This document shows positions 26,501 to 55,106 of a DNA stretch of 55,106 nucleotides, piece after piece. Both the position numbers and the translations under genes were made by a program. This DNA comes from a virus (taxonomy: Duplodnaviria > Caudoviricetes): positions 1 to 55,106 of the IMG/VR virus record IMGVR_UViG_3300036715_000866. The stretch is one strand, 5' to 3'. The number at the start of each line of letters is the position of its first letter. Positions within the stretch are counted from its first letter, which is position 1. Under the pieces are notes generated by a model, which saw only the letters and a program-made list of their open reading frames with translations, had not been told where the DNA came from and did no database searches.

Positions 26501-28326
26501 TAGTCGCCACGGTCCAACCCGATAGCGCGAGCACGGGTAATTGCGTCTTCCAGGGATACGTTACCAAGTGACACCTCGATCTTGTCTTTCTTGCCCTGTT
26601 TCATGGCCATGACCAGTGCGGCGTTGGCTTCCATTTCGCCCAAGGTCTGCCCGAGGATTCGGGTGGCCGCGTCGACCGCTTCCATGCGCTTCTGGTTCAA
26701 TTCGCGCATGCGCGTCAGGTCGGCGCCGTTGCCGGCGGCTTCCAGTTCGATTCCCTGCGCCACGGCCTTCCACTGCATCGCCTCTTTCACTGCCGCGTCG
26801 GTCGCTTTCATATAGTGCTCGACGTGGTAGGTCTGGAGGCCATCTCGGAGGTCGGCAAACTCATCGGCAGTCAGGTCGGATTGCAGCCGGCGCGCGAGCA
26901 CCTGCGCCGCCCCGGCCACGCCCAGCACATCCACAGTCATACGGTCGATCAGCCCGGCCCCGGACGCCGTCAGCGCCACCGCGTTGAAGGCGTTGTTGGC
27001 GCCAATGCCTAGATGCCGGCCGATGGCCTTCTTCGGGTCGCCCCCTGCCTGCTTTCCGACTTCATCCAGGAAGCCGCGCGTCGCCACCGTCTTCAGGTCG
27101 GCCTCCAGTTCCGACTTGACCTTTTCGTCGAGGTCCGCCGCATCGGCCTCCAGGATATAGACGCCCTTGGGCTCGACCGCCTTGCCGATGTGCTTGTTGG
27201 CCTCGCGCGCCTTGGCGTGAACCGCCTTCAGCTTCTTCTCGGCCTTGAGCAGTTCCATCGCCTTCTTTGCGTCGATCAACTTGGCCTCGGCATCTTTCGG
27301 CGCAGGGTCGCGCATGGTCTTCAGTTCTTCGGCGATCCGCGCCGCCGCGGCCCGGCGCTTCTCATTCGAGCGCGGCTTGAAATCCTCGCCCTGGATTTCC
27401 TTCTTCTCTTCCTTGACCGCTTCCGGCGTGGCGCCATGCTTGGCGGCCTCGCCCTTGAAGTAGACCGCAAAGCCGGGGCCTGTATCGGGGCGCACCGGGT
27501 CCATGTCCTGCGTCGATATGACCTCGGTATCCGGCGTCTCCAACGGCACCTCTCCGCTGAAGGCTTCCTCGCGGGCATCGGCATCGGCAAGCAGGCGCTG
27601 TCTCTGCAGGTCGACCGCCTCGGTGGCCTTCTTCAGCCACGCGCGATGATGGTTCTCGTAGGCTTTCTTCTGTGCCGCGTCGGACAGGTTCGACGCGGTA
27701 TCCGGGTCGTACTGCGCCCCTTCCCAGCCCATCGCCTCTGCCACGGTCTTGATGTACTCGCGCTCCGCCGCCGTGACCTGGGCCTTCACCTGGTCATGGA
27801 CGGCCTTTTTCTGCTCGTAGATGCCAAGTTCCTTGTCGCGCTTAGTCTGTTCCTTCTTGGCATTGCGCCCTTCCGCCGCCTCCTGGCGGTACTGGTCTGC
27901 GCTCTTGACGTTCTTCAGCTTGAGGTAGTTGAGCTTCCCGCCGGCCCCGCCGATGACGTGGTATACGCCGCTGCCGCTGTGCGTTTCTCGGACCAGTACC
28001 GGAGTTCCCTTGGATTCCTTGTCGCCTCCCGCATGTACAGTTATCCACCTCTCGCCGGCTCCAAGCGCCTTATTGAGAGTGGCCGCCAGACCTTCCCTGT
28101 GCATATCCTTGAAATCTGGTACCTTGCTTTCGCCGTTTCCAGAATAGGGAAGCATTCCTTGCCGTTCAGGGTAATCATGGCATGGCTCCAATGACTTGAT
28201 CAGCGCATCTACGCCAAATGTGAACTGCCCGGCCTCCAGGTCGTAGGCGTTGCCGGACGGCATGATCAGGGTGATGGACTTGGCCATACCCTTCCCGCAA
28301 AACAGGATTCTGGATGAGGTACTCAT
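23590..28326 (-). CDS. Large SNF2-like helicase-domain (polyvalent) protein, probably virion-packaged
   Basis: 1578 aa; GVGSGKT, VDEGH, GAVGLNAQ, QRNGRINRLGQ; N-terminal xKS/KA sites and RWITVH. Confidence 0.85.
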   Translation of the reverse strand: MSTSSRILFCGKGMAKSITLIMPSGNAYDLEAGQFTFGVDALIKSLEPCHDYPERQGMLPYSGNGESKVPDFKDMHREGLAATLNKALGAGERWITVHAGGDKESKGTPVLVRETHSGSGVYHVIGGAGGKLNYLKLKNVKSADQYRQEAAEGRNAKKEQTKRDKELGIYEQKKAVHDQVKAQVTAAEREYIKTVAEAMGWEGAQYDPDTASNLSDAAQKKAYENHHRAWLKKATEAVDLQRQRLLADADAREEAFSGEVPLETPDTEVISTQDMDPVRPDTGPGFAVYFKGEAAKHGATPEAVKEEKKEIQGEDFKPRSNEKRRAAAARIAEELKTMRDPAPKDAEAKLIDAKKAMELLKAEKKLKAVHAKAREANKHIGKAVEPKGVYILEADAADLDEKVKSELEADLKTVATRGFLDEVGKQAGGDPKKAIGRHLGIGANNAFNAVALTASGAGLIDRMTVDVLGVAGAAQVLARRLQSDLTADEFADLRDGLQTYHVEHYMKATDAAVKEAMQWKAVAQGIELEAAGNGADLTRMRELNQKRMEAVDAATRILGQTLGEMEANAALVMAMKQGKKDKIEVSLGNVSLEDAITRARAIGLDRGDYTINSVGSERFLTVAGTGMDRLAKPIAREDQARIRSNLDIMEGREDEDGWLPKGVANRPDLATNIQPGISPRLAQSFDPSYVGLARGLRDYIGGRTADGDAPADIVADLLSQDMIEKSGDREGYMAALEELVPLKDGDGKLLRAETHQAAFEKMADDFVDSRYGGKVSPLHRQNFTTDQKSVDALHRALSEEPAGVLAYQPVGDLGAVGQKALRDYWWANVGKKDAKAAGLRQELVEHERNEPEKESVDMFGETSINPAWQSWKQERDQKAEALNAAGLDWNKYSTIMGGPAKAYQAVQDMVRGRVAQQFHNAYNTLNPGAPLKLGRTVIAGNLNHLDAVDPAAREARIQEQRKLVDSLRERVAGKYASGAVSDKLMAARDQKEAAAQSQMGFFSTEPEPEKETPLQADQRHTLGQAAEQHLAAMMSAVGKNFKPGEPTRLWQPSMSGRYVNQQRAVKLLEKNKRMVLPQGVGSGKTLIMLGGFAHLHETGKAKRGLFVVPSIVQGQFSGEALRYLDPNANGGKGFKWHIEPGASREERIKAYQDPDTHFSVVTHQGFRDDMVHLGAKQAGIDEAAMAEKINGMDSGARKEWMRGVMDKAGMNHDFLAVDEGHDLLNRAGKENSLLANVVDSVAHNTPYYVNASADPVKNDPSELFSLLQKIDPVRYHDPKAFMRKYGVDMPAAKDELRRELARYFYPGKIESGVKVTRRVENVKLNADQETASKAVESNLARARLARMRGQVDVDAVKALSPSSFVGVDPARHAEVAKKLQTNLDILKETAYRRAINGHANGAKQEAVSRLANERRGKPGVVFAHGLNEVATIADRLRKEGHRVVVITGSDSAKEKFHKKRMFNPENGEAEADILVASDAGAVGLNAQRGQWLVQYDCPVTAKTFHQRNGRINRLGQKNDVELIDLVADHPSERRARDRLLKKDELRGILTTPLEGLDDTGLAAHIARARMEREEKGLF

Positions 28327-28500: not shown

Positions 28501-28824
28501 CTATCCGGCATCCTCGTCATGCAGCAGGAACACCCCGCCGCCCACCGGGTCTTCAACCTCGGCGCGGGTCAGGTTGTAGGCGGCGTTCTGGCCGTACTCG
28601 GCGACGGCTGCCTCGATGGCGGAATCGAGCGTGGCATGTTCCGGCATCCTGGCCATGCAGTCGGGGTCCATGTACTCGCCCAGCAGGTGCAGGCTGTAGC
28701 GGGTATAGTAGCGTTTCAGGAGCGCCTTGACGAAGAACCAGTACACGCCGAAGTTGCGGTAGCGGCGGGGGTCCTGCTGCAACAGTTGCAGGGTTGAGGC
28801 GGCGAACTTGTTGGGGGAGATCAT
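28501..28824 (-). CDS. ulx: P1 Ulx-like protein
   Basis: LLQQDPRRYRNFGVYWFFVKALL resembles my recollection of the P1 Ulx core (LLKNPRLYRSYGPYWPEIKKLL); ATGA-coupled to the darB-like gene. Confidence 0.65.
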   Translation of the reverse strand: MISPNKFAASTLQLLQQDPRRYRNFGVYWFFVKALLKRYYTRYSLHLLGEYMDPDCMARMPEHATLDSAIEAAVAEYGQNAAYNLTRAEVEDPVGGGVFLLHDEDAG

Positions 28825-31800
28825 GCGGCCTCCTTGCTTTTGGAGGCGCCTTCGGCCTCGCGCTTCTCGGCGATATTCAGGCTTTCCTCGATCACGTCTC
28901 GAACCGTGCGGTTTGAATTTCCAGAATACCGGTAATCTTGCAGCAGGCCATTGTGGGTTAATCCAAGCGCGGCCATGGTCATGTCGGCATCTCCTGACTT
29001 CTCCGCCACCTTGAGCATGGCCCGCAGTTCCGCAGCCGTATGGCCCCATCCCCGCGACATCGCCGCCAGCGCCTCACGCGCATTGCCTTCCGGGTGATGC
29101 TTCTCAGCCGCCTTCGCCATGGCCACCGCCAGATCACGCTGGCCGGATTCCACGGCCATGCGGTAGAGGGCGTTGTGGACGCTCATGTCCTGGGTGTGGT
29201 GATAGGCATAGGCATCGTGCAGGCCGGAATCGTATCTCGACTCGGGCGCCTTCGGGACCAGCGACTTCATCTCACGCCCCAGAACCCCGTCATGCCTCGC
29301 CTTCGCCCACAGGATCGCCAGCGCGCGGCGATTCCAGCGCACTCCGGCACCATGCCCTTTCTCCGGGTTGATCACGTTGCCCAGCGGCGCGGCCTCGCGG
29401 ATAGCCTCGGTGAAGGTCTTGGCGCGGCGCACCCGTTCCAGTTGCTGCTTCTCGAACCGCTTCTTGAGCGCGCGGATGGTCGGCGTGGTGGCACCGTAAC
29501 TCTGTTTCTCCTGGTTCTGGTCGTTGACCAGTTGCGAATAGGGATTGACGCCTCTCTGGTCATAACCGGTATCCCGGTATTTCGACATCGCACGGGTTTC
29601 CGTCTTCCCGGGCTTCCTGGTCACATAGTCGATGCCGAAGGTCCGCGTGCGCCGCGCATCCATCCAAGCATCCTCGACCTTCTTCTTGTTCTCGTCGGTC
29701 GGCAGCAGGAAGTCATGGGTACCTTCCTTCCCCTTGATTTCGTAGCTCTTCATCATCTCGACCTTGCCCGTGGCCTTGTTGACCATGGGGGTCTGGTAAG
29801 GGAACGCCACCTTGTAACCAAGGGCACCCTCGAACAGTTGCCGCTGGATGGCGTCTTTGTTGGCCGTCAGCACGTTCGACGGCATGGCGTAGACATCCTC
29901 GTACTTCTTTAGGCTGTTGACCTTTTCAGCTGCGGCCTTCTCCATCTTCGCGGCCACCTCTTTGGCCTCCGCTTCCGGATCGTACTTGAAGTGCGTGATG
30001 CCGTGGCGCAGGGTTTCCAGGTCGACGCTGTGCTTTTCGGTTCCGGCATAGTCGCGCACCGTCACGGTGCCGGCGCGCACGTTGACGCCGGTGACCACGA
30101 ACTTACCCTCGTCAACCCCGGCATCGTTGACCGCCTGGAAGGCCACGCCGGCATGGTAGGCTTCGCCGGTCTGAGGCTGGATCACCGTAGGCACGTCGGA
30201 ATCGAGCGCCGCCTTGGCGGTGAAGAAGCGGTTCGACTTGAGCGCGGTATGCGCCGCGTCGAGTTTCTGTTTTAGGCGCGCGGCCGTCGCCGTGCCCTTG
30301 TTCTTGAGCGCCTTGAACCCGGCCTTCAGTTCCTGGAAGCGGACGAATTCGCTCGCCGCCTTCACCCGCTCTCCGGCCTCGTGCTGCGCCGTGGCCAGGG
30401 CCTTGTCGGCCGCGAACTTGGCGCGCGCCGCATCCGGGTCGGCGGCCATCATGATCTGGATGTCCTCGCGGCTGAATTTCCCCTCGCGCGACAGGTTTTC
30501 AACCCGGTCGCCGCCACCCCAGATCAGGTCTTGCCAGTCCTTCTTGGCGGCAATCGCCTGGTGCCGGTAGCCATCGAACGAGCCTTTCGACAGGTAGGTG
30601 TGAATCCGCACCGCCTCGCTGATGTTGCCCTGGCGCAGGCCGCGCCCGTTGCGCTGCTGCATGCTGGCCGGCTCCCACGGCAGGTCGGCGTGGTGAATGT
30701 CAGTGGTGCCTTTCTGGAGGTTCAGGCCCTCGCCCATCGTCGCCGTGTTTCCGATCACTACCAGGAGTTTCCCGGAATTGTAGGCGTCGGCGATGTTCTG
30801 GCGCTTGACCGAAGACGATGCCACCTGCGCATTGATGACGCCGATCTTGTCGCGCGGAATTCCTGCCGCAACCAGGGCGGCAACGATCTTGTCGTGCGAG
30901 TCGATGTAGTCGGAAAACACTACCTGGCCGCCGTCGGCCAATCCTTCCGCGACATGCTTGGCCAGGGCCGCATACTTCGGGCTCTTCTCGCCCGCGTGCG
31001 CCACCGGATCGAGGATTTCCAGGTCGAGGGCGGCCTTGTTCATCTTGTCCATGATGGAGAAGATGTGGCTGTCGCCGGTAGCATCCTTGTCCCTGGCGGA
31101 TTCCTCAAGCTGGATGCGCAAGTCGGCATAGACCGCTTCCTGTGCAGGCGACATGGTGACAAAGTGGAGATGGTCGTCGCGCGCCGGCAGCATGAGTCCA
31201 ACCTGTTCGGCCGTGGTGCGGTCGATGTACCGCTTCATGATTTCGCGCAACTCGCCCATGTTCTTGAAACCAGAGGTAACCAGCGCCTCTTCGATTTCGC
31301 CGCGCGTGTTCAGGATGTTGTCCTTGGTGAACTCGCAGAACCGGTCAAGGAAGTCCTCGCTGTTGCGGATGCCGATGTTCTCGAAGGCTTCCGGGGCGAT
31401 GTGCGACAACATGCTGAAGATTTCCAGCGGGCTGTTCTTCGTCGGCGTCGCGGTCAAGCCGTAGATGCCCTTGCCGCCATGGTTTTCGAGCAGCCAGCGC
31501 GCCTTCAGGTTGAAGTCCATCGAGCGGTCGGAAAGGCCCTGGCCGCCAAGAAACTTGGGCGCCTCGCCGAAGCGCGTCTTGGCGGCGTAGAGGTTTTTCT
31601 GATGGTGCATTTCATCGGCGATCAGCATGTCGATGCCGATGTCGTTGAAATAGATGGCGTCGGTTCGCTTGCCGATTTCCCGCTGCGCGATGGCCTGCTC
31701 GTAGGCTTCCTTGATCCGCTTGCGGCGCTTGTCTCCGGCCTGCTCAAGGCTGTCGCCGCGCTGCACCCAGAAGTCCTTGCTGTAGTAGTTCTCCTTGGTG

Positions 31801-34800
31801 ATCGGGTCGAGGTCGAGTTCCTGGAACGCCGGCTCGCTGATGATCACGAAGTCGTAATCGTTCTGCGACAGATCGTGGTACTTGCGCTTGCGCTCATTGG
31901 CGTTGTCGTCGCGGCCGGTCAACTTGCCGTCCTTCATGGTGAATTCGGCGCCGATGGTCAGCACCTTGGCGCTGGGGAACCACTTCTGGCATTCCGCATA
32001 CCAGTTAGCCAGCACCGACTTTGGAACCACGATGCCCGGCTTCTTGGCGCTGCCGTTGATCTTCGACATGCGGGCCAGCAGCAGGCCGCGCAGGGTGTTG
32101 TGTGTGACGATGAAGTTGTCAGTCACATAGAGGCGAGAGGGATGCGCCACAGAGATGCACTGCGCCGGCTTCACGCCAACAGGCTCTATCGTATCGAAGT
32201 ACCTGATAGGCAGGTATTTTGTGCTCTCTCGGAATCGCTCGACCTTACGGCTATGCAGGAACGGGACCACTCCTGACGGCATGCGAACGCCTACTGTGTA
32301 GGCAAGTCGCCCGGTACGCTTCTCGCCTTTGTGGGTGAACGTCGGCGTCTTCGTCGATATCCACGCATTGCCGCCAAGCGACTGAACCAGGAACACCACA
32401 TCATCCGCAAGGCGCTGGCTGGTGCTTGTGTATTGCACGGCGCAGCCGTTCTTGCTGACATAGCCGTCTGTGTCCATCAGGCCGTGCAGCACGGCGAGAC
32501 GAACTTCAGACGAATTGAACTTGTAGGCGTCCGGAATGAACTTCTCGGGTGAATGCACCTTCATGCCAAGCACGTCCAGGACTGCACCAACCGCATTGCG
32601 GGTGGTGCAGTCGATCACGTCGCGGCGCAGCCTAAGGGATGGACGATTCCCTTCCGGCGCGAACTGCTTGCCGATCATGCCTGATGGCAGCATTCCGGCA
32701 ATCGCATCGAGAATGGCTTGTTCAGGTTTGGTGATGGCCGGAGAAAACCCAACCAGGCTTCCGTCGCCGATCAGCGCACCCAGCAGGTAGGGATGCAACG
32801 GCACTTCAGGCCCAGCGAATTCAACATTTTTTATCATTGGGATCGCGTGGTTCCTGCTACCACGATAGCGCAACGTCTGCATGATTTCGGCCAGCGCCCG
32901 CACCTTCGGAATTCCGCCATCGCCGCATCCGCGCCGTGCGTTGTTCTTCTCGATTTGCGTCTGCGTCAGCCAAAGATGCTCTGCGCAGCACTCTGTTGCG
33001 GCACCATCCGAGAAGGTGACGCGGAAAATCTCCTTCGCGCCCTGGGGGAACACGCCTGTTACCTCAGTGGGAGTCCCGTCACCAGCAATCACCAGATCGC
33101 CAACCTGAATATCGCCCATCAACTTCCAGCCGGCAGGCGTCAGAATCTTGGCGTCGAGCGGCTGGGCTTTCCCGAGCCCAACGTCTGCCGCGATGATGCC
33201 CTTCCCGGACGCCAGCGCCCACCGCAGGCCGGGCCACTGGTAATCCTTAATCTTGTCATGGTTGGCAAGGCCGGGAACATCTATCGGCTCGCCGGAGAAC
33301 TCCTTGGGCACGAATCCCTTGAACTTCCTGTTGTAGAGGTCTTCCACCTCTTCCCGGTATTTCGATGCGGCCAGCCAGGTCTTGAACTCGTCGTTCATCT
33401 TCTCGACCAGCGGCAGGTCGTCTTTCTTGACGCCGGAGCGGTTCAGGTACTTGGTCAGCAACGGATCACTGACCCCCCCCGAGACATAATAGACGCCCTT
33501 GTCGAACGTCACGCTGGATGGTTCGAGCCCCTGGTAATACGTCGAGGTCGGGTAATCGGCCTGCGCCTGCGCCACCTGGGCATCGCGCCAGGCGTCGAGA
33601 ATGCGCAGCGGGATGAAGGCGGAATTGACCTTGATTTCCACGTCTTCCAGTGACTTGGCGTCGATCACGTCTTCCAGGCGCTTCACCTGGGCTTCCACTT
33701 TCTCGCGCATGCCTGGCGGAAGCGCCGCATTCGCCAGCAGCGCCTGCGCGGCGTCGAGTTTCGGCCAGAGTTCGCCCGTCAGGTAGAAATTCATCGGCGC
33801 CCACCGGTCTAGGCCGCCCCAGGCGTAGCTGGCATCGGCAGTAAGATGGTCCAGCGTCTCATCGCGGTCCTTGCCCATGGCTTCGGCCAGTTCATCCAGG
33901 GTGAATTCTCCGCTTTCGTGCTTCAGCGCCAGGGAATGCGCCACCGTGTCGAAGGTTCCTTCGATGCGATCCGCCATGCGCCCGGTCACCACGTCGGATA
34001 GGGCGCCATCCTTGCCGACGGCGCCGATCAGGCGATACAGCGTCTTGTCGGTAGCGGCGGCCACCAGGAGGTTGGGGTTATTGGCCGGTACTCCATGCCG
34101 CGCCACCCAAGCGCGAATGTCGGCTTCCAACTTCGGGCGGTCGGCAGCCTGCCCAGTCATGAGCCGGTCCAGTTCGCCGGCCAGCGCCTGAGCTTCGGTC
34201 ACGGCTTCCGTCTGCATTGCCTCGTCTACGCGGCGCCAGCGCGGCGGGTTGCCCTGGAGCACGTAGTCCACGCCGTCGATGGTGCGGATGTCGCCCACCT
34301 TCGCTGTGTCCTGGTAGGGGATGCTCTTGGCGCCAGTCATGGCGCGGTTGCGCGCGGCGTCGTCGCCCAGCGCCTCCAGTATGGCTGGCATGTCCGGAGT
34401 GCTGCCGACAGGGTGCGGCACGAATTTGGCGATTTCTTCCGGTACGCCGTTCATCGAGCCGTTGACGGTGTAAATCTCCCCGAACGCGCGCTTGGCGGTA
34501 CCGGCGGAACCGAACAGGTTGCCGGCGCCGCGCTTCTCGAAGTAACCGCCGCCCAGGAACTCGTCGTCCCACACGCCCAGCTTGCGCAAGACATCCTGGC
34601 CCACAGTGCCTAGCGCGCCGGCCACCTCGTCGGGGCGCTTACGCAGGTAGATGATGTCGGCGGTCACGTCGGTGTGACTGGCCTCGAAGGCGCTGTTGGG
34701 CATACGCTGCGCGCCCAGGAACTCGGCCTTGCGCAGCATCCGTTCCCGGAATGCGCGGCCGTTCTTGCTGTCCATGATGCCGGCCGGCACGACCATCACG

Positions 34801-35969
34801 CACAGGCCGTCCGGCAGGGTCTTGTCGAGCGAGGTGTCGATGAAGTATTCCTCGGCCTTGCCCAGGTCTTTCTTGTCGTCCTTCAGCAGCGATCCGCGCG
34901 GGCCGTAGGGGGGATTGCCGATTGCGATGCCGACACGGCGCATATCCTGGGTGGCGAACCGCTCCAGGCTGGCGTTGACGATTTCATGGCCAGGATGCAG
35001 CGCCACGGCAATCTTGGAAGAAACAGGGTCCAATTCAACCCCGATCACCTTGACGCCTTGCGGCGCGGTATGCAGGAACACGCCTGTCGCGCAACTCGGC
35101 TCCAAGGCGGTTCCCTCCGGGAAACCAAGGCGCGCTGCGACAGCCCACATGGCGCCTGCCACGGCCGGGTCAGTATAGAACTCGTTGAGGCTGTCGCCGC
35201 AGCCGCCATTGCCGGAATATTGGCGCAGCACGGCAAGGTCGGCTTCGCTCATGTCGACAGGAGCCTTCTCGGCTACCAGGCGCGCGGCCTCGGCGTTGAG
35301 CGCGCGCCGTGCTGCCTTTCCGATACCGGCCGGGACGCCGAAGGTCGGCATCCTGGCTGGGTCGTAGGCTTCAGTGGTGGATGCCGGCGGCGTAGGGGTG
35401 ATGGTTGTTTCCACCTTTGGCGACTCGGCCGCCTTCGCATCCCATTCCGCCTTCAGTTCCGCATGCGCCGCCGTACCAACCGAAGGAATTCCGCCGATGC
35501 GGTCCTTGGCGAAGTCGGAGAAATACTTGAAGTCGGACGCCGACCGCTTTGCCTTGACTGGCTTCGGTGCGTTCGCTGGCGAAAACAGATCATCCACTGC
35601 CGGCGCCGGAGGGGTCATAGCCAACCGCGCTTCAACCGCATCCGCCGTGGTCTTCCCGACCCTGGCCATCTCCGCCACGAGGTGTGCGCGCTGCTCGCCG
35701 GTGAGCCCGTCCAGCATCGAGGCAATGCGGCGCTCGCCGCCCTTCTTGGCGATGAATTCACCAAGGATGTCGCGGGTTCCCTTCGGGGCCGGCGCTTCGC
35801 CGAATAAGTCGTTCTGCTCTGGAGCCTTCGGTTTGTCGGCGCGCTTCTTGCGATGGGTGGCGGCAGGGGGAACGAAGGTACCCTTCTTGTTGACGTATCC
35901 CGCCTGCATAACAGGCATGTCGAATAGTGCGGCCTGGTCTGCCTTGAGCAGAAAAAGAATGTGCTTCAT
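28821..35969 (-). CDS. darB: DarB-like N6-adenine methyltransferase + SNF2 helicase, intein-containing
   Basis: Start 35969 (MKHILFLLKA). EFYT, LEPSCATG, GNPPY; DVGLGK/T, DEMH, TATPTKN, GEGLNLQ, QRNGRGLRQGN. Confidence 0.85.
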   Translation of the reverse strand: MKHILFLLKADQAALFDMPVMQAGYVNKKGTFVPPAATHRKKRADKPKAPEQNDLFGEAPAPKGTRDILGEFIAKKGGERRIASMLDGLTGEQRAHLVAEMARVGKTTADAVEARLAMTPPAPAVDDLFSPANAPKPVKAKRSASDFKYFSDFAKDRIGGIPSVGTAAHAELKAEWDAKAAESPKVETTITPTPPASTTEAYDPARMPTFGVPAGIGKAARRALNAEAARLVAEKAPVDMSEADLAVLRQYSGNGGCGDSLNEFYTDPAVAGAMWAVAARLGFPEGTALEPSCATGVFLHTAPQGVKVIGVELDPVSSKIAVALHPGHEIVNASLERFATQDMRRVGIAIGNPPYGPRGSLLKDDKKDLGKAEEYFIDTSLDKTLPDGLCVMVVPAGIMDSKNGRAFRERMLRKAEFLGAQRMPNSAFEASHTDVTADIIYLRKRPDEVAGALGTVGQDVLRKLGVWDDEFLGGGYFEKRGAGNLFGSAGTAKRAFGEIYTVNGSMNGVPEEIAKFVPHPVGSTPDMPAILEALGDDAARNRAMTGAKSIPYQDTAKVGDIRTIDGVDYVLQGNPPRWRRVDEAMQTEAVTEAQALAGELDRLMTGQAADRPKLEADIRAWVARHGVPANNPNLLVAAATDKTLYRLIGAVGKDGALSDVVTGRMADRIEGTFDTVAHSLALKHESGEFTLDELAEAMGKDRDETLDHLTADASYAWGGLDRWAPMNFYLTGELWPKLDAAQALLANAALPPGMREKVEAQVKRLEDVIDAKSLEDVEIKVNSAFIPLRILDAWRDAQVAQAQADYPTSTYYQGLEPSSVTFDKGVYYVSGGVSDPLLTKYLNRSGVKKDDLPLVEKMNDEFKTWLAASKYREEVEDLYNRKFKGFVPKEFSGEPIDVPGLANHDKIKDYQWPGLRWALASGKGIIAADVGLGKAQPLDAKILTPAGWKLMGDIQVGDLVIAGDGTPTEVTGVFPQGAKEIFRVTFSDGAATECCAEHLWLTQTQIEKNNARRGCGDGGIPKVRALAEIMQTLRYRGSRNHAIPMIKNVEFAGPEVPLHPYLLGALIGDGSLVGFSPAITKPEQAILDAIAGMLPSGMIGKQFAPEGNRPSLRLRRDVIDCTTRNAVGAVLDVLGMKVHSPEKFIPDAYKFNSSEVRLAVLHGLMDTDGYVSKNGCAVQYTSTSQRLADDVVFLVQSLGGNAWISTKTPTFTHKGEKRTGRLAYTVGVRMPSGVVPFLHSRKVERFRESTKYLPIRYFDTIEPVGVKPAQCISVAHPSRLYVTDNFIVTHNTLRGLLLARMSKINGSAKKPGIVVPKSVLANWYAECQKWFPSAKVLTIGAEFTMKDGKLTGRDDNANERKRKYHDLSQNDYDFVIISEPAFQELDLDPITKENYYSKDFWVQRGDSLEQAGDKRRKRIKEAYEQAIAQREIGKRTDAIYFNDIGIDMLIADEMHHQKNLYAAKTRFGEAPKFLGGQGLSDRSMDFNLKARWLLENHGGKGIYGLTATPTKNSPLEIFSMLSHIAPEAFENIGIRNSEDFLDRFCEFTKDNILNTRGEIEEALVTSGFKNMGELREIMKRYIDRTTAEQVGLMLPARDDHLHFVTMSPAQEAVYADLRIQLEESARDKDATGDSHIFSIMDKMNKAALDLEILDPVAHAGEKSPKYAALAKHVAEGLADGGQVVFSDYIDSHDKIVAALVAAGIPRDKIGVINAQVASSSVKRQNIADAYNSGKLLVVIGNTATMGEGLNLQKGTTDIHHADLPWEPASMQQRNGRGLRQGNISEAVRIHTYLSKGSFDGYRHQAIAAKKDWQDLIWGGGDRVENLSREGKFSREDIQIMMAADPDAARAKFAADKALATAQHEAGERVKAASEFVRFQELKAGFKALKNKGTATAARLKQKLDAAHTALKSNRFFTAKAALDSDVPTVIQPQTGEAYHAGVAFQAVNDAGVDEGKFVVTGVNVRAGTVTVRDYAGTEKHSVDLETLRHGITHFKYDPEAEAKEVAAKMEKAAAEKVNSLKKYEDVYAMPSNVLTANKDAIQRQLFEGALGYKVAFPYQTPMVNKATGKVEMMKSYEIKGKEGTHDFLLPTDENKKKVEDAWMDARRTRTFGIDYVTRKPGKTETRAMSKYRDTGYDQRGVNPYSQLVNDQNQEKQSYGATTPTIRALKKRFEKQQLERVRRAKTFTEAIREAAPLGNVINPEKGHGAGVRWNRRALAILWAKARHDGVLGREMKSLVPKAPESRYDSGLHDAYAYHHTQDMSVHNALYRMAVESGQRDLAVAMAKAAEKHHPEGNAREALAAMSRGWGHTAAELRAMLKVAEKSGDADMTMAALGLTHNGLLQDYRYSGNSNRTVRDVIEESLNIAEKREAEGASKSKEAA
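32097..33167 (-). mobile_element. Class 3 intein with LAGLIDADG homing endonuclease (357 aa)
   Basis: GLGK|AQPLDAKILTPAGW...IVTHN|T; EHLW, AQCISV, THN (W-C-T signature); LGALIGDG and HGLMDTDG. Confidence 0.92.
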
Positions 35970-35995
35970 CGCCTGGTCCTGTGAGATTCCTGGCG

Positions 35996-36010
35996 ATGAT
36001 GGCGTCACGA
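35996..36010 (-). promoter_or_regulatory. Putative late promoter TCGTGAC-GC-CATCAT
   Basis: 26 nt upstream of the darB-like ATG, with AGGA RBS. Confidence 0.7.
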
Positions 36011-36015
36011 TTGTT

Positions 36016-36189
36016 TCAGTCGGCCGGGAAGCCAGACAGCGGGTGATACGGATTTCCCCGCCCCCACAGGCGTTCGGTGGTGGCGGTGAAGGCAATCGAT
36101 GGTGACGGCAGTTCGTGGCAGGCCTTGAAATAGGCTTCCACGCTGTCGAGCACTTGCTGTTGATAGATTTTCGGTGCGAATCCGGACAT
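36016..36189 (-). pseudogene. res: Type III restriction subunit (Res), 57-aa N-terminal stub
   Basis: MSGFAPKIYQQQVLDSVEAYFKACHELPSPSIAFTATTERLWGRGNPYHPLSGFPAD*, 3 nt after the mod stop; ends before the expected PTGGGKT. Confidence 0.7.
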
Positions 36190-49710: not shown

Positions 49711-51828
49711 TCAGTTTGTTCGTCGCACAAAGTAGTCGCAGCCCGGCGCTGCCTGTTTCACCCGGAAGCCGCGCTGGACACACATTCCTATCGCCCCGTC
49801 GAACCCGGTGCAGCGCCCGCATACCTCTCCTTCCACCGGGACATCCAGCATCTTCGCCGCCAGGGATGCCGGCATGCCGGGGATGTTCTTTACCAATTCC
49901 GACACGTCCTTCTCCATCGGTTTCGAGTCAGGGAAGAACACCATCCCGGCCCCGTGATTCCTCGCCCAGGCAACGTCGCACAGCATGTTGGCGTAGCTGT
50001 AGTGGGGGTCGATGCCGACTTTCGCAACTTTGGCGCGCGCCTTGCGGGCCACCTGCATGCCGCCGGCCTTGGCCTTGCTCTCGTCGCCTTCGTTCTCGAC
50101 GATCAGCGCCGTCTTCGTAAAGTGGTTGAACACCCAGTCGCGCAGCAGAGCAACTCGCTCCTTCTTGCCGTTGACCATTACGTCCTGCTCCAGGGCGTCT
50201 GGGTCCGGGAACAGGCAGAACGGTACCAGCTTTCCGTTAACCACGTCGCCGCGAATCCGGAACAGGCTAGTCTGCATGCACTTGTACTGGTTCAGGTTGA
50301 CGGTGTATCTGCTGCGATCGTCCTCGGCAGTCTTCTGGTCAGACCGGCTCAACTGGTCGCCCCACAGCATCATGTCATCACGTAGGTCGCCGTAGCCAGC
50401 CAGGAACACGCGGCCCCGATGGCTGATGCCGCGCTTCTGGTCTTCGAAGTTGGCGAATCGCCTAGCGTCGTTGACGTTGGGCAACTGTTCGACCACGCAC
50501 ATCGCCACGCCAAACAGTTCCATCAATTCCGTGCAGCGCGCAAACGGGTCCAGGTCGAACACGGCCTCGACGTGGACTACGGCCTGCCGGCCATCCGGCA
50601 GCCGCTTCTTGATGATGACTGCATTGAAGCCGCCCATCTGGTCGATGCCCATGTAACAGTCGCGGCCGTGCGTCTGCCAGGTCAGGCCGATACGCATACC
50701 CTCTTCGGCCGCAGCGAGGCAGTGTGCCATCGTTACCGGCAATTGCTCTGCGTCGATGTAGGGCCGGGCCAGGGTGCGGTTGTAGAAGCTCTTTTTCTGG
50801 TGCCCGGTCTTGGCGCGGTTGTACCCCTCGATCATTGCGCGCGGCGTCATGCGCGGGCTGATCGTGCGCGGCAACAGGAACGACCTGATAGTTCTGCTTG
50901 CGTTCGGCGCCGTCTCGACCACTTCGCCGATTTGAGGGTCTTGTATCCAGCCGCCGCAGACCGGGCAGGTCCAGACGTACTCATTCATCGGCGCCCCCGG
51001 AAACTGCCCGTTGTTGTAGCCGATCGATTTGTCCGGGAAGATGCCGGCCGGGTCGGATAGGTCGGACAGGGCATCGCAATGCGGGCAGCGGGTGTGCCAC
51101 ACCTCCTGGGTCCCCTTCATGTACCAGTAATTGATGTCGTATTCCGGCATGTTGGCAGTGGACAGCATCAAGGCGAAGCCGATTTCCGAGTCGCCCATCC
51201 GCGCCAGCACCTTGTCAATGTGGTCCAGCGCAATTTCCTGGACTTCGTCTAAGCTGACGATGTCCATCGGCCTGGATTCGGTCGTCACCTTGCCGGTCGT
51301 CCAGAGGAACAGGAACATCGACTCGCCCATGACGCGGGTGAGGATGTTGCCCTCTCCGACGCGCTTGGATTTGCCCTCTTCATCGGGCCGGAAGATCAGC
51401 CGGCGTAACAGGTCCGGCACTGAGCGCACGATGCGCATGAACCGGTGCTCGCTCTTGTGGCTGGCCGTGGCCTGGTCTGGCATGAACATGCCGACCGTGA
51501 TCGGGCCGAACTTCAGCGCCATGTAGATGTGCGCCAACACCTCCCAGACGGTCAGGCCCAACTGGGTGGACTTCTGCACCACCAGGATGCGCCCGGCCGC
51601 CTCTTCCGGCGTTGTCGGGATGGCATCGTAGATCGGGATCAGCGCCGGACGGTTGTCCAGGGTGAACGGCTTTCCGTCGATCTTCATGCCGCGCGCGGCG
51701 AGGTCGTTGCACCACTGGCGGAAGGTCATCTCGCGGGGTAAGGTCTTGCTACCATGCGGCAACTTGGCGGTTATTTTCGCCATTGCCGCTTCAAGCCCTC
51801 CTCTAAGGTCAAAGTTTCGCTTGCCCAT
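49711..51828 (-). CDS. terL: Terminase large subunit (GpA-like)
   Basis: QKSTQLGLT, LDEVQE, LSTAN, CPHC/CPVC, MGIDQ, DPHYSYAN. Confidence 0.92.
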   Translation of the reverse strand: MGKRNFDLRGGLEAAMAKITAKLPHGSKTLPREMTFRQWCNDLAARGMKIDGKPFTLDNRPALIPIYDAIPTTPEEAAGRILVVQKSTQLGLTVWEVLAHIYMALKFGPITVGMFMPDQATASHKSEHRFMRIVRSVPDLLRRLIFRPDEEGKSKRVGEGNILTRVMGESMFLFLWTTGKVTTESRPMDIVSLDEVQEIALDHIDKVLARMGDSEIGFALMLSTANMPEYDINYWYMKGTQEVWHTRCPHCDALSDLSDPAGIFPDKSIGYNNGQFPGAPMNEYVWTCPVCGGWIQDPQIGEVVETAPNASRTIRSFLLPRTISPRMTPRAMIEGYNRAKTGHQKKSFYNRTLARPYIDAEQLPVTMAHCLAAAEEGMRIGLTWQTHGRDCYMGIDQMGGFNAVIIKKRLPDGRQAVVHVEAVFDLDPFARCTELMELFGVAMCVVEQLPNVNDARRFANFEDQKRGISHRGRVFLAGYGDLRDDMMLWGDQLSRSDQKTAEDDRSRYTVNLNQYKCMQTSLFRIRGDVVNGKLVPFCLFPDPDALEQDVMVNGKKERVALLRDWVFNHFTKTALIVENEGDESKAKAGGMQVARKARAKVAKVGIDPHYSYANMLCDVAWARNHGAGMVFFPDSKPMEKDVSELVKNIPGMPASLAAKMLDVPVEGEVCGRCTGFDGAIGMCVQRGFRVKQAAPGCDYFVRRTN

Positions 51829-52445
51829 CAGAGGAAGGCAGCCGTGGTCATTCCGTAGGCGCGGTTCAACTCGGCCATGCGGTCAAGAATTTCCTGCTGG
51901 GCCTCGGGCGAGACCTGCCCAACCGCCTCGGTGACCGCCTTGAAGAAGGCCTCCAGCCTGTTTACGTCGGCGAGAAATTCCATGACAGAAGCCGACGCCT
52001 TGATGGCGTCGAGACGAATTCGCGCCGATTGCATCAAGGTTTTGGTGGATTTGATCTTAGCCTTTCCGTCTTCTCCCGTTACGAGCGCCGCGTCCCGCAA
52101 CAGGTCAGCCGCGCGCAATGCCTCGTTCAGATGCACCAGGTAGTCGATTGTCTGGCTGACGTTCTCGACGCCGTTCTGAATCACCGTCCCAGGCGCCAGA
52201 GGCATTGGCATCAAATCTTTCGCCCGATGGACCTCGCGGATGACTCTTTGCGTCGCCTTCTTTGATACGCGCCCGGTCGCGCCGGCCGCGCCGTTCTTGA
52301 AATTCTTGATGGCCCGCCAGAAGCTCGATTCCGACACCCCCGGGAATTCCGCCCGCACAAGCGCCCACTTCGCCATCCCGTGCTCGCTTACGTGAGCAAC
52401 GATGGCGCGTTCAAGACCTTGGAAATCGACCTTACTCTCGTCCAA
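51828..52445 (-). CDS. Probable terminase small subunit
   Basis: N-terminal HTH-like segment and helical body, directly upstream of terL; TTG start. Confidence 0.6.
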   Translation of the reverse strand: MDESKVDFQGLERAIVAHVSEHGMAKWALVRAEFPGVSESSFWRAIKNFKNGAAGATGRVSKKATQRVIREVHRAKDLMPMPLAPGTVIQNGVENVSQTIDYLVHLNEALRAADLLRDAALVTGEDGKAKIKSTKTLMQSARIRLDAIKASASVMEFLADVNRLEAFFKAVTEAVGQVSPEAQQEILDRMAELNRAYGMTTAAFL

Positions 52446-52504
52446 CTGTCAGCCCTAAGTGTTTGATTTGTCGCTTTACTTCCAGATACTTTCAATGAAC
52501 GTTC

Positions 52505-52519
52505 AGATTACTGTCACGA
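52505..52519 (-). promoter_or_regulatory. Putative late promoter TCGTGAC-AG-TAATCT
   Basis: Heads the terminase operon. Confidence 0.7.
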
Positions 52520-52604
52520 TGGTTGAAAGTTGGTTCAAATAAGCACGACTTGAGCCACTACCGCAGCAACTTCGGTATCTACCGGATACCGCCCCGCTTA
52601 TGAT

Positions 52605-52703
52605 CATCGGCCCCTTGCCGGGGCCTGTTATGCTCACCTGACTCATACTGCCCGATAGAACCGCCCCGTTTCTGTGCCGATCACGCCGTTGAAATCCGGC
52701 TCC
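52605..52703. repeat. Direct repeat A, copy 1
   Basis: Identical to 55008-55106; contains the ggcccc-ttgcc-ggggcc hairpin and the 3' end of gene 52643..52870. Confidence 0.95.
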
Positions 52704-52870
52704 CCGTCTTCGTCCACCGGCAAATCGGCTGGGTTGATCTCGATCGCTTCGAATGCCGTGAAAGCCTCGCGCGGTGTGTAGAGGACTTCGCCATCACAAT
52801 CGTACCCACGAGCCACTGCCTGGTCGATTTCAACGTAGCTATCGCAACCGTTCCAAACAATCTTCGTCAT
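52643..52870 (-). CDS. Small acidic early protein
   Basis: RBS AGGAGA and promoter supplied by repeat B. Confidence 0.8.
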   Translation of the reverse strand: MTKIVWNGCDSYVEIDQAVARGYDCDGEVLYTPREAFTAFEAIEINPADLPVDEDGEPDFNGVIGTETGRFYRAV

Positions 52871-52980
52871 GATCTTTTCTCCTAGGTTTGCGGTTTGGGC
52901 CTATCCCTAACCGTTGAATCTAGTCTAGTCCGCTATCGGAATAATGTCAAGCCTTTTTTCAAAATATTTTGCATCATCTC
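52867..52980 (-). repeat. Repeat B copy 1: UP element + sigma70 promoter + stem-loop + RBS/ATG
   Basis: TTGACA(52945-50)-17-TAGACT(52922-27); 114 bp, 4 mismatches to 53593-53706. Confidence 0.92.
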
Positions 52981-53082
52981 GCGGGTCATATATTCGTCGC
53001 CTCCAAATATCCTCCAGCATCGTTTACAAATAATCCACCCACGCATTGCTGGCCGTCCGCAGTGTTCGCATTTCATCGGCAT
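52933..53082 (-). CDS. Small Zn-finger ORF whose end is supplied by repeat B
   Basis: RBS AGGAG; MPMKCEHC...CKRC. Confidence 0.55.
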   Translation of the reverse strand: MPMKCEHCGRPAMRGWIICKRCWRIFGGDEYMTREMMQNILKKGLTLFR

Positions 53083-53091
53083 GTCTCCTAG

Positions 53092-53159
53092 GTATAACGA
53101 TTCGAGCAACCCGGAAGCTGACGATAAAGCCGCCTGCACCTGTTAGCCATCGGTTATAT
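53092..53159 (+). other. attC-like site (degenerate)
   Basis: GTATAAC-N5-GAGCAACC...GTTAGC-N5-GTTATAT. Confidence 0.45.
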
Positions 53160-53351
53160 CTCTTCCTCCGGCGGCTTCATCTTGTACAGCCGCCTGAGGG
53201 CTTTTTCGATCATCACCGGCCCGCTTTCCTCACGGGCCGGCGCCGTCAGCCAGTCCCGCAACCACTGCGGGAGCTTGGTGTTGTACGGCACCTTTTTCAG
53301 GTGCTTTGGGGCGGGTTTCCTGCCCGCACCTTCTCGTGCCCCTCCGCTCAT
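53154..53351 (-). CDS. Small DNA-binding protein (GGAREGAGRK + RHH-like)
   Basis: MSGGAREGAGRKP...TKLPQWLRDWL. Confidence 0.75.
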   Translation of the reverse strand: MSGGAREGAGRKPAPKHLKKVPYNTKLPQWLRDWLTAPAREESGPVMIEKALRRLYKMKPPEEEI

Positions 53352-53596
53352 TCCTCGCCCCACGCGTTCTCGGCTTTCTGCATGACATCGCCAAACCGCT
53401 CGAACTCATCGGACAGGTCGGCTAGTTCAGGGTTTTCTGCATCGGTCTTTGCATATTGCGCTAGGTCGCCCCACGAATCCTCACGATTGATAGCGTCGAG
53501 CGTTACGGAATCCCGCTGGGCTAACGTCGATACGAGCATGGTGCGGAATTCGTTGATTTTGGTATTGGTGGTTTCAAACAGTTCGTTTTGGCTCAT
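53348..53596 (-). CDS. Small acidic early protein
   Basis: Start supplied by repeat B copy 2. Confidence 0.8.
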   Translation of the reverse strand: MSQNELFETTNTKINEFRTMLVSTLAQRDSVTLDAINREDSWGDLAQYAKTDAENPELADLSDEFERFGDVMQKAENAWGEE

Positions 53597-53706
53597 GATC
53601 TTTTCTCCTAGGTTTGCGGTTTGGGCCTATCCCTAACCGTTGAATCTAGTCTAGCCCGCTATCGGAATGATGTCAAGTCCTTTTTCAAAATATTTTGCAT
53701 CATCTC
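53593..53706 (-). repeat. Repeat B copy 2 (early promoter cassette)
   Basis: TTGACA(53671-76)-17-TAGACT(53648-53). Confidence 0.92.
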
Positions 53707-53711
53707 CAGAG

Positions 53712-53800
53712 GCATAACACTGCGCTCAACACGGGCGCCAGTATTCCCTGTTCACTTCGTGGTTACGTCCTCGCCGCGCCCGCCTAAACTGGCGTTCGCT
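53712..53800 (+). other. attC-like site (degenerate or chimeric)
   Basis: GCATAAC-ACTGC-GCTCAAC...CGCCTAA-ACTGGC-GTT. Confidence 0.45.
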
Positions 53801-53988
53801 GACTCAAGCCAATCGATGCGCGGCTGTTCTTTCCTGAGCGCGTAATACTCCACCTGCACCTTTGCGCTGCCAATCATCTTCCCGGCCAAGTTCGCCAATT
53901 CCGCGGCTTCACTCGGCTTGATCGTGCCGGCCTTCAGTTGCTCGAAGGTCTGCGCCAGCTCTTCCCGTAATTCCTCGCAGTTTTTCAT
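53752..53988 (-). CDS. Conserved hypothetical phage protein
   Basis: ELANLAGKMIGSAKVQVEY; C-terminus runs into the attC-like site. Confidence 0.75.
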   Translation of the reverse strand: MKNCEELREELAQTFEQLKAGTIKPSEAAELANLAGKMIGSAKVQVEYYALRKEQPRIDWLESANASLGGRGEDVTTK

Positions 53989-54275
53989 TTCGTCATCTCC
54001 GTTTCTGCAAACAAGTCCATCGTTAGTGTGTCTACTTCTGGCACTTTGTCGCCTGCCAGAACAAATGCCGTACAGCGCGAGCCGGATTCATCCTCAACCC
54101 ACTCTTTCACTGGCCCGCGAAAAGCGGCAGCAATCAGTTCACACAGTTCGTTGTCATCGCATTCATCAAAGTCCGCGCCTTCACGCATCGCCTTGTCGCG
54201 CTGGCAGCGACGGCACCACGTATCGATAAATACGACGGCTTCGGTTCCGTTTGATGTTGTGTAAATCTCAGCCAT
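53985..54275 (-). CDS. Cys-rich phage protein (SNGTE...WCxxC family)
   Basis: SNGTE...WCRRC...C...EW...CTAF. Confidence 0.75.
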   Translation of the reverse strand: MAEIYTTSNGTEAVVFIDTWCRRCQRDKAMREGADFDECDDNELCELIAAAFRGPVKEWVEDESGSRCTAFVLAGDKVPEVDTLTMDLFAETEMTK

Positions 54276-54729
54276 TTCTGCATTCCCTTTCAATCATCAG
54301 TTGCAGGCGCTTGCACTCAATCAATACTTCCGGCACTTGCTTTACCGTCGAACGTTCCGGGTGGCAAAGCAGACGCCGCACGTAGTAGTCGCTCAACCGT
54401 TCGCGGCCTCTCTTCATCTTCTTGCGCCGCGCTTCGGCGGCTTTCTCCGGGTTCGCTGCGGCCCAAGCAATCAGCGCCGCCCGCCCTTGTTTGGCATATT
54501 TTTCCTTGCGCGCTGCCGCCATCTTGTCTTTCACCCCGTTTGCGTTCTCCGCATACCGCACCCGGTATTGCGCGTTCCGTTTTTCACGATTTGCTGCGTG
54601 TTGCGCTCTGCGCTTGGCAAGGTGGCAGTCGTTGCAGTAGCGCATTACAGTTTTTTTGTCGCTGTGCAGCCGGTATTCGCTTTCCTGTTTTTCTTTGCCG
54701 CAGCACGTACATGTTTTCATCGTCGTCAT
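54268..54729 (-). CDS. Basic Zn-finger protein (HNH-associated N-terminal type)
   Basis: KTCTCCGKEK...YCNDC; no clear HNH core. Confidence 0.7.
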   Translation of the reverse strand: MTTMKTCTCCGKEKQESEYRLHSDKKTVMRYCNDCHLAKRRAQHAANREKRNAQYRVRYAENANGVKDKMAAARKEKYAKQGRAALIAWAAANPEKAAEARRKKMKRGRERLSDYYVRRLLCHPERSTVKQVPEVLIECKRLQLMIERECRNG

Positions 54730-54799
54730 CTAACTCTCGCTTCAAGCGGGACGCGGCGCTATAAAGCCGGCGCATCGCCACTTAAACTATGCGTTGGTG
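54728..54799 (+). other. attC-like site (best of three)
   Basis: ATCTAAC-N5-CTTCAAGC...ACTTAAA-N6-GTTGGTG with canonical 5/6 spacing and an extra C in L''. Confidence 0.65.
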
Positions 54800-54807
54800 G
54801 TATTTGA

Positions 54808-55044
54808 TTGAATCTTATCGAAGCCATCGACAGGCTCATTACTGAAAGAGGTTCTTCTGCCGTTCTTGATAAGCACCTCTCGTTCATCAGAGATCAAGCA
54901 CAGGCTCTCGAAAAGCAAGTCGACGCACTTAAAAAAGAAAACTCCGGACTCATAACAGAGCTTGGCGAATGCCAATCCAATCTTGCTACCAAATCTAGTC
55001 AAAATTACATCGGCCCCTTGCCGGGGCCTGTTATGCTCACCTGA
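54808..55044 (+). pseudogene. Lower-GC cassette-like gene truncated by repeat A
   Basis: Starts 15 nt after the G of the attC GTT; coiled coil; last 12 codons come from repeat A at 55008. Confidence 0.55.
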
Positions 55045-55106
55045 CTCATACTGCCCGATAGAACCGCCCCGTTTCTGTGCCGATCACGCCGTTGAAATCC
55101 GGCTCC
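55008..55106. repeat. Direct repeat A, copy 2 (runs off the window)
   Basis: 99/99 identical to 52605-52703. Confidence 0.95.

Follow-up and report, generated by a model that had tools for sequence, protein, structure and literature searches.

Probable attC remnants upstream of the terminase genes of a myovirus-like phage fragment, and an apparently inverted cassette shared with unlike phages

Integrons are the main gene-capture system of Gram-negative bacteria, and attC sites in phages have been shown only recently. In bacteria, attC-site clusters that have no integron integrase (CALINs) are defined, in sections of Cury et al. 2016 (PMC4889954), as two or more attC sites without a nearby intI; the origins discussed there are intI loss and rearrangement, and a nearby intI pseudogene is rare (15 of 279). 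For phages, the text of Qi et al. 2023 (PMC9892861) describes 17 CALINs and reports recombination with attI1 under IntI1 for five of the six phage attCs assayed, and phage-borne attC clusters are in that respect an already known kind. Vibrio superintegron arrays, according to passages of a further study (NAR 2024, PMC11014356), can carry their own promoters inside cassettes. Here we describe three co-oriented attC-like sites, spaced 0.6-1.0 kb apart, in the virus record IMGVR_UViG_3300036715_000866, the whole of which (55,106 bases, linear, about 60% complete by estimate) was analyzed and is referred to below as the window. The sites lie in an accessory block directly upstream of the genes for the small and large terminase subunits (terS and terL). 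They are probably worn attC remnants, a decaying CALIN without integrase that delimits cassettes in this block. Two features of the locus and its relatives seem new: the inverted polarity of the cassettes and the sharing of one cassette among unlike phages.

The likeness to the phage CALINs in the text of Qi et al. 2023 extends to attCs without intI in tailed phages, several per genome, sometimes with several open reading frames (ORFs) between sites, and to DNA methylase cassettes, represented here by N6_N4_Mtase in relatives of the window. The differences, measured against that same text, are that the window sites are eroded, that the genes are inverted relative to the attC, that one cassette is common to contigs with different structural genes, and that attC function here is predicted only. 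As in the bacterial CALINs and sedentary chromosomal integrons covered by sections of Cury et al. 2016, the arrays are small, hold mostly unknown genes, have no nearby intI and, in one related array, are accompanied by an intI remnant; unlike those, the window is a virus contig in which the sites lie next to packaging genes and cassette ORFs lie on the bottom strand, and with one site passing a model of real attCs the window alone may miss the two-site rule. Compared with attC_aadA1 and attC_aadA7, as given in the sources seen for them, the sites have the same length (57-72 nt), AAC/GTT R boxes and a 5-6 nt spacer, while an L box with G16 and a T23/T24 bulge is clear in the relatives and partial in the window, and the top strand of site 3 repeats the TCTAAC, 6-nt spacer and TTCAAGC of attC_aadA1; in contrast to attC_aadA1, much of the pairing is gone from the sites in the window (z about 0 to -1.6 vs -4.9), and the adjoining genes are on the opposite strand. 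A complete integron, with intI beside attI and a Pc promoter, would differ further: the window has no intI, and one related contig has no more than an N-terminal IntI fragment.

A preliminary description of the window had placed the three sites at 53092, 53712 and 54728, each at a gene junction, and both the sequence and the ORFs bear this out. Site 1 overlaps the stop codon of g69, and g49zn begins 10 nt past it; site 2 overlaps the 3' end of g78; and site 3, which on the bottom strand reads R' = CACCAAC and R'' = GTTAGAT, abuts the ATG of g153 at 54729. The same description had minus-strand ORFs starting at R'', and two of the three starts that it listed belong to real genes (g49zn and g153), whereas the GTTATG at site 2 opens an ORF of 18 codons and the next real gene after that site is g82, behind a promoter module termed D1. 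AAC and GTT are present in all three sites, and the R boxes match the consensus RYYYAAC / GTTRRRY (left and right, plus strand) at 6/7 and 6/7 positions in site 1, 6/7 and 6/7 in site 2, and 7/7 and 5/7 in site 3. Spacers are 4-6 nt long. The L box of site 3 pairs with wobbles, four non-standard pairs are marked in the model alignment of site 2, and two non-pairing positions were counted by eye in the L box of site 1. G16 is aligned in sites 1 and 3 (in a 16-element alignment with elements of relatives) and in site 2 (in the model alignment), while the T bulge, missing from site 2 and ambiguous in site 1, is displaced to position 24 in site 3.

The window has few copies of TAAC and GTTA, 37 and 47 respectively, and 20 of the 84 fall in its last 5.1 kb. 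All 97 TAAC...GTT pairs lying 50-150 nt apart on either strand were scored by the sum of box consensus, R-box complementarity and L-box complementarity (maximum 28); the three sites rank first, and the seven pairs scoring at least 21 all lie within 53092-55036. Between 52446 and 55106, four plus-strand pairs reach this threshold, which was set post hoc with the sites already seen, against a mean of 0.34 in 1000 dinucleotide shuffles, a fraction 0.001 of which reach four. A fourth candidate at 54950-55036, an 8-bp inverted repeat around a terminator, was dropped because it was matched by no covariance model. The R boxes alone give no orientation, the two strands scoring 22 vs 21 and 21 vs 21; the co-orientation of the sites, likewise part of the preliminary description, comes from the covariance models, whose matches to the three sites are all on the minus strand.

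Score and fold tests alone would have led to rejection; the relatives changed the verdict. Homologues of g153, at 83-88% protein identity, were found in six other viral loci plus one partial copy (L086-L092). In all of these a g78 homologue directly follows the g153 homologue, and g96, which separates the two genes in the window, is absent from all seven loci; g96 is therefore an insertion peculiar to the window, where no attC was found at its borders. The relatives carry well-formed elements at the gene junctions around g153-g78, and with three to six sites each they clearly hold the two attC sites that define a CALIN. In order, their elements comprise a stop codon within YTAAC, a spacer of 5-6 nt, an L box, a stem-loop rich in GC, the partner L box with an extra G, a further spacer and GTTAG. 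Folded as single strands, eight of them reach -11.8 to -21.9 kcal/mol (z -1.7 to -4.4). When R and L helices are held fixed in the 16-element alignment, 81.6% of cells pair, compared with 71.1% after shuffling and 25-48% with a slid partner; the L helix is 84% paired with 8 of its 11 pairs changing on both sides, and AAC and GTT are invariant across the 16 rows. The window sites can be tied to these elements directly: site 1 is identical at 47 of 68 positions to the strong element L091:6532-6599, with a blastn match of 85% over 41 nt for site 1 as well, and site 3 is identical at 46 of 72 positions to the strong element L088:1238-1307.

The loci that share this cassette do not appear to belong to one kind of phage. 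The relatives carry tape-measure and J-like tail proteins, and one contig has a different terminase and portal, by which they would be phage-like but different phages from the window, with its tail sheath and GpA-type terminase. The unit attC-g153-g78 is flanked by different neighbours in L086-L091. When 80 loci of relatives of the window's large terminase (TerL) were compared with the block by blastn and tblastn, there were three short DNA matches, and the protein matches were to TerS only; in the locus of the closest TerL relative (L005, 85%), methylase and deaminase genes stand in place of the block.

Three covariance models were used to place the elements with respect to known attCs. R1 was built from 16 elements including window sites 1 and 3 as seeds; R2 from 24 elements of relatives, with no window site and no bacterial site; and R3 from 14 true attCs of three class 1 arrays; site 2 was a seed of none. 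Over 208,683 bases, R1 gave 32 matches at E <= 1, and those in the window were the three sites only, with site 2, a non-seed, at 24.8 bits (E 0.005) and site 1, a seed, at 50.8 bits; in 50 kb of plasmid R100 its sole match was the true attC_aadA1. R2 also found attC_aadA1 as its only match in 50 kb of R100, at 59.9 bits and with the ends that had been read beforehand, and in three additional class 1 arrays it matched every one of the 14 cassette junctions (13 at E < 1e-3), for a total of 15 of 15 attCs in four class 1 integron arrays. Every one of these matches was on the bottom strand, the top strand giving at most 9.7 bits, and the true attCs scored 11-60 bits. Because a model built from phage elements alone recovers class 1 attCs, the phage elements are a good model of real attCs. 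Run unfiltered over both strands of the window, R2 ranks site 3 first, at 21.9 bits (E 0.008), and site 2 second, at 15.0 bits (E 0.29), both with exactly the ends that the preliminary description had given them. The best match of R3 in the window is again site 3, at 16.0 bits (E 0.15 over the window and 0.007 over 2.7 kb), and in L086-L092 R3 finds 28 elements at E <= 0.03, scoring 19-57 bits and all on the gene strand, with one antisense match besides (13.2 bits).

By these scores the elements in the relatives are members of the attC family. Judged in the same way, attC-class membership is strong for the relatives and weak for the window, where site 3 is plausible, site 2 marginal, and for site 1 it is homology that points to an attC. 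The preliminary assignment of the sites to the attC class is thus upheld by homology and covariance models, with the qualification that the window copies are eroded. The covariance-model check that it proposed, carried out with our own models, supports site 3, leaves site 2 marginal, and goes against site 1, which fails all models that were not trained on it. Its further description of a CALIN-like array stands as regards attC class and the lack of intI, but only site 3 passes the real-attC model (16 bits), and the sites are eroded.

The models also assign a strand. Sections of Nivina et al. 2016 (PMC5027507) give the extrahelical bases of attC_aadA7 as G16 and T23, on the arm opposite the bottom-strand AAC. 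An extrahelical G at position 16 from the 3' end is present in 23 of 24 phage elements vs 12 of 14 real attCs, and an extrahelical T at position 23 in 17 of 24 vs 10 of 14; these bulges are on the 3' arm of the modelled strand, which identifies it as the bottom strand. In the window and the related loci, this strand, predicted to be the recombinogenic one, has the sense of the genes, opposite to the arrangement in bacterial cassettes. On the bottom-strand side of the window are g153, g96, g78, g82, g69 and g49zn, canonical cassette polarity being found in p78cc only, and the cassette genes of the relatives likewise lie on the attC bottom strand, whereas in class 1 arrays and betaproteobacterial integrons the genes are on the strand opposite to it. 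Of the cassette-filling ORFs tested, four of six with bottom-strand orientation have Pfam matches (to RNA ligase, helicase C, N6_N4 DNA methylase and HNH_3), against none of four ORFs on the other strand of the cassettes, and in the relatives codon-position GC agrees with genes on the bottom strand. The claim of the preliminary description that the genes run antisense to the conventional attC top strand is accordingly sustained by the G16/T23 polarity and the Pfam matches. No statement on genes lying on the attC bottom strand was found in the passages searched, among them the text of Qi et al. 2023.

Elements of this kind extend to other viral contigs. A search with the consensus motif led to at least 80 viral loci, at least 31 of which contain R3 matches at E <= 1e-3 (at least 98 matches in all); at least 22 hold two or more matches and at least ten hold four or more. 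Among the matches listed, IMG/VR contigs L149, L139, L162 and L136 and 18 other loci carry arrays of 2-12 attC-model matches. A crude ORF-polarity call on the viral loci listed gives at least 25 inverted, at least 15 canonical and at least 24 unclear among at least 64 inter-attC segments, and for bacterial controls 1 inverted, 12 canonical and 3 unclear among 16 segments; the count across viral loci is a lead, not a result. The same crude call suggests that some arrays, for example L139 and L136, are wholly inverted and that others, such as L165 and L144, are canonical. In the 80 TerL-relative loci, by comparison, R3 has a single match (L025:7593-7654, 29 bits, about 2.3 kb upstream of the terminase gene), and the TerL lineage is thus not characterized by the array.

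In pairwise comparisons of the relatives, homology sets in 0-3 nt away from the upstream attC's first base, namely at 4941 vs 4944 in L086/L087 and at 247-250, 2740-2743 and 4927 in L088, L089 and L090. These breakpoints fit both a crossover at the canonical place, the AAC of R' on the bottom strand, and the rule that the attC body stays with the R''-side DNA, here the downstream gene. Comparable breaks occur at the window sites in Logan contigs of four public runs (X1-X4), which contain 41-94% of the sampled words of the stretch. At site 1, contigs of all four runs break at 53152/53153, adjoining the canonical G|TT. At site 3, a variant contig (X1, X2) shares sequence only from 54792, a break at 54791/54792 that is 2 nt from G|TT; it continues in common through 55005 and then changes to other sequence, and the p78cc of the window is therefore truncated by the repeat termed D2. 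By eye, the letters before 54792 in the variant contig read as the end of a different attC. The site 2 5' arm with the g78 end (53751-53802) recurs in run contigs (X1-X4) with different sequence before 53751. The relatives and these metagenome contigs together show gene content to vary at exactly the junctions named in the preliminary description.

The last 58 nt of g69 recur in much deeper contigs of the four runs. At 53153-53211 and 53751-53802, the ends of g69 and g78 with an attC arm, bin depth is far above that of the rest of the phage, reaching about 75 in the first segment, and one X3 contig has a depth of 91.4; related cassette ends are thus present in an abundant organism or element that shares these habitats.

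As the preliminary description had stated, the window contains no intI. The 55-kb sequence has no TIGR02249 match at E <= 0.01, while 14 of 14 control genomes are positive; the contig ends 307 nt past site 3, and the search on that side covered those 307 nt. Five related contigs were searched for IntI, with none in four of them. The fifth, L090, has an N-terminal IntI fragment at 2147-2536 (minus strand) that corresponds to positions 3-131 of TIGR02249 (E 1.7e-38) and 14-150 of PRK15417; it covers about 130 of 315 model positions, is without the catalytic half, is separated from the first attC by about 320 nt and runs divergently to the array. Its nearest genomic relatives, at 45-63% identity, are in Sulfuricella, Sulfurimicrobium, and Burkholderiales and Hydrogenophilales metagenome-assembled genomes. 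The polarity of attC relative to intI is normal in those betaproteobacterial integrons and reversed in the L090 phage contig.

Several observations weigh against reading the window sites as attC remnants, or against how far that reading can be carried. The bottom-strand folding check of the preliminary description failed: as single-stranded DNA, no site folds better than its shuffles in six folds (z 0.04 and -0.36 for site 1, -0.37 and -0.91 for site 2, -0.84 and -1.63 for site 3), and among the three sites end-to-end pairing is predicted for site 1 only, whereas the control attC_aadA1 of plasmid R100 folds at -18.8 kcal/mol (z -4.9). Site 1 has no R2 match in the window at E <= 10, and R3, whose alignment was fitted by R2, gives site 2 7.7 bits and site 1 about 6 bits on either strand, which is noise level, an unrelated match nearby scoring 8.8 bits. 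The covariance models are our own, standing in for the attC model of IntegronFinder, and their E-values are rough after a short calibration. In front of g153, the window and L086 have attC bodies of different types despite 87% DNA identity of the gene. G:T vs A:C mispairs carry no strand signal, being 11 vs 12 in phage elements and 9 vs 7 in real attCs. Finally, some breaks fall inside attCs, at 53750/53751 in site 2 and in the chimeric left arm L088:250-311, and the L086/L087 homology ends 25 nt into the downstream attC rather than at AAC; ordinary recombination between similar attCs probably acts as well. Activity of the sites in this phage is doubtful, and present-day recombination by a host integrase is a prediction.

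These internal breaks are the natural starting point for a different account, in which the elements are conserved linkers shuffled by ordinary homologous or illegitimate recombination without an integron integrase. The repeated promoter and terminator modules of T4-type phages would be a comparable case. Breaks inside elements past the 5' L box (site 2, L088:250-311 and L086/L087) would be expected of such linkers, and the window has true repeats in D1 (124 nt, 94%) and D2 (99 nt, 100%), the latter traversed by an X2 contig. We nevertheless regard this account as unlikely, as it leaves unexplained why integrase-specific features (AAC/GTT, an unpaired spacer, and G16 with T23 on a single arm) are kept by compensatory changes, and why breakpoints lie within 0-3 nt of the R box. 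Ordinary recombination more probably operates on real attCs as an additional process.

A second alternative is that the elements act mainly as RNA, as intercistronic processing sites, stabilizers or weak terminators, with their attC likeness incidental or secondary. The transcripts do carry the hairpins because the folding strand is the sense strand, and the matches in the window and L086-L092 are all on the gene strand with the exception of the 13.2-bit antisense match. In addition, the elements lie between ORFs, often with the upstream stop codon in the R box, the window has no integrase, and attC sites are thought, according to the text of Qi et al. 2023, to hold weak terminators. Yet a model of class 1 attCs, R3, recognizes the elements at 19-57 bits, they share the G16 and T23 bulges used by integrases, homology breaks at the AAC crossover, and an IntI remnant lies beside one array; moreover, no T run follows the stems in the sequences inspected by eye, and no Rfam match is above threshold (over 51500-55106, a single snoRNA-like match far below it). 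A primarily RNA-level role is, on balance, quite improbable.

It is very improbable that the three sites of the window are TAAC...GTT pairs arisen by chance in intergenic DNA richer in AT: the loose motif, the folds no better than shuffles, the noise-level R3 scores of sites 1 and 2 and the post hoc enrichment threshold would allow it, but the two top matches of the window-blind R2 coincide, ends included, with two of the three sites, sites 1 and 3 show 64-69% full-length identity to strong elements from other loci, and the flanking cassette is shared with strong-attC arrays, by which chance is largely refuted for sites 3 and 2.

The wider setting of the sites is as follows, with coordinates collected in Table 1. 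Nearly all long ORFs of the window are on the minus strand. PHROG matches comprise a tail sheath, a major head protein, a portal and a GpA-type large terminase (49711-51828), on the basis of which the window is, by predicted gene content, a fragment of a myovirus-like phage. Two giant minus-strand ORFs between the portal and head genes, at 28821-36095 (2424 amino acids) and 23590-28326 (1578 amino acids), match DarB-like antirestriction, DNA methyltransferase and helicase families. The accessory block spans about 2.6 kb and has a GC content of 52-55% vs about 62% elsewhere; g75, g49zn, g69, g82, g78, g96 and g153 are on its minus strand and p78cc alone is on its plus strand. The preliminary label of the block as an early region is not established; the block lies directly upstream of terS and terL. 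The ATG of g49zn is at 53082 with AGGAG ahead of it, and g82 has no family match in Pfam and PHROG searches. The lower-GC, cassette-like plus-strand gene noted after the third site is p78cc, which indeed has 43% GC, a coding-like pattern over codon positions 1, 2 and 3 (GC 0.55, 0.35 and 0.41) and canonical polarity, although it is truncated by D2. Searches of 51800-55106 against 50,697 phage records by blastn and of the g153 protein against cultured phage genomes gave no match, and among terS-based relatives sought in viral contigs none was confirmed.

Table 1. Coordinates of the attC-like sites, repeats and genes in and beside the accessory block of the window
Feature	Position	Strand	Description
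site 1	53092..53159	- (bottom strand)	attC-like relic; plus strand GTATAAC ... GTTAGCC-ATCG-GTTATAT
site 2	53712..53768	- (bottom strand)	marginal attC-like relic; plus strand GCATAAC ... GTTCACT-TCGTG-GTTACGT
site 3	54728..54799	- (bottom strand)	attC-like; plus strand ATCTAAC ... CTTAAAC-TATGC-GTTGGTG
D1 copy 1	52867..52990	-	promoter / 5' untranslated region (UTR) / ribosome-binding site (RBS); before g75
D1 copy 2	53593..53716	-	promoter / 5' UTR / RBS; before g82; begins where site 2 ends
D2 copy A	52605..52703	-	g75 3' end and terminator-like hairpin
D2 copy B	55008..55106	-	contig end; terminator-like hairpin at 55012-55028
terS	51828..52445	-	putative small terminase subunit; block boundary; tblastn relatives adjoin TerL in 32 loci
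g75		-	3' end within D2 copy A (52605-52703); behind D1 copy 1
g49zn	52933..53082	-	small zinc-ribbon ORF; weak Pfam zinc-ribbon matches and phrog_24410
g69	53154..53363	-	stop codon in R box of site 1
g82	53348..53596	-	small gene behind promoter module D1; from ORF list
g78	53752..53988	-	second gene of shared cassette; blastn 77-84% identity to L086-L092
g96	53985..54275	-	phrog_6074, Cys-rich motifs; between g153 and g78
g153	54268..54729	-	endonuclease VII / HNH-like; phrog_1035 E 1.3e-8; first gene of shared cassette
p78cc	54808..55044	+	low-GC coiled-coil gene after site 3; 3' end runs into D2

Some of the changes to the block did not proceed through attCs, namely the g96 insertion, the duplicated D1 and the duplicated gene end with terminator (D2). 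The two copies of D1 share their first 62 nt exactly and contain a sigma-70-type promoter, TTGACA-17-TAGACT (minus strand), and a start codon; a promoter scan found 2 sites vs 2.1 expected, and its value is only that both fall in D1. The exact 32-nt core of D1 has no match in viral contigs. D1 recalls the promoter cassettes of Vibrio in that its sigma-70-type promoter module begins exactly at the end of site 2, but, set against the passages describing those cassettes, it differs in being a duplicated promoter/5' UTR/RBS module attached to genes rather than a gene-less cassette. The 99-nt copies of D2 are identical direct repeats, and the X2 contig joins 55007 to 52605, running through D2 into the interior of g75, which implies that at least 2.4 kb is present as a direct duplication or in tandem or circular form.

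If the sites are indeed attC remnants, the history of the block may be pictured as follows. Under the canonical rule each attC would travel ahead of its genes, opposite to the order in bacterial cassettes, and by the same rule site 3 would belong to the g153-g96-g78 cassette. The block would have been assembled and exchanged by attC x attC recombination, with host integron integrases acting in trans; a betaproteobacterial link for the IntI of the hosts is suggested because the nearest IntI relatives of the L090 fragment are betaproteobacterial. On this scheme, p78cc would be a canonical bacterial-type cassette trapped antisense to the phage genes. The sites would have decayed afterwards in this phage, and ordinary recombination would then have reshaped the block through the D1 duplication, the truncation of p78cc by D2 and the g96 insertion. 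The inverted arrangement may also favour folding, in that a bottom strand in gene sense would be the non-template strand in transcription and, if the genes run with replication, the lagging-strand template; it would thus often be single-stranded and fold readily.

More tentatively, we suggest that tailed phages may keep their own pool of inverted cassettes, and that host IntI could turn phage accessory regions into platforms for gene swapping between unrelated phages. If this is true, the swapped genes would include nucleases, methylases, ligases and helicases, and normal bacterial cassettes landing in phage arrays would end up antisense, like p78cc. Arrays can decay inside a phage, so tools tuned to intact attCs would overlook some of this history. 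One cassette occurring together with its attC in phages whose terminases and tails differ is the expected look of integrase-mediated traffic between phages, and the reversed build of the cassettes would bear both on the coupling of strand choice to expression and on the mixing of phage and bacterial cassette pools.

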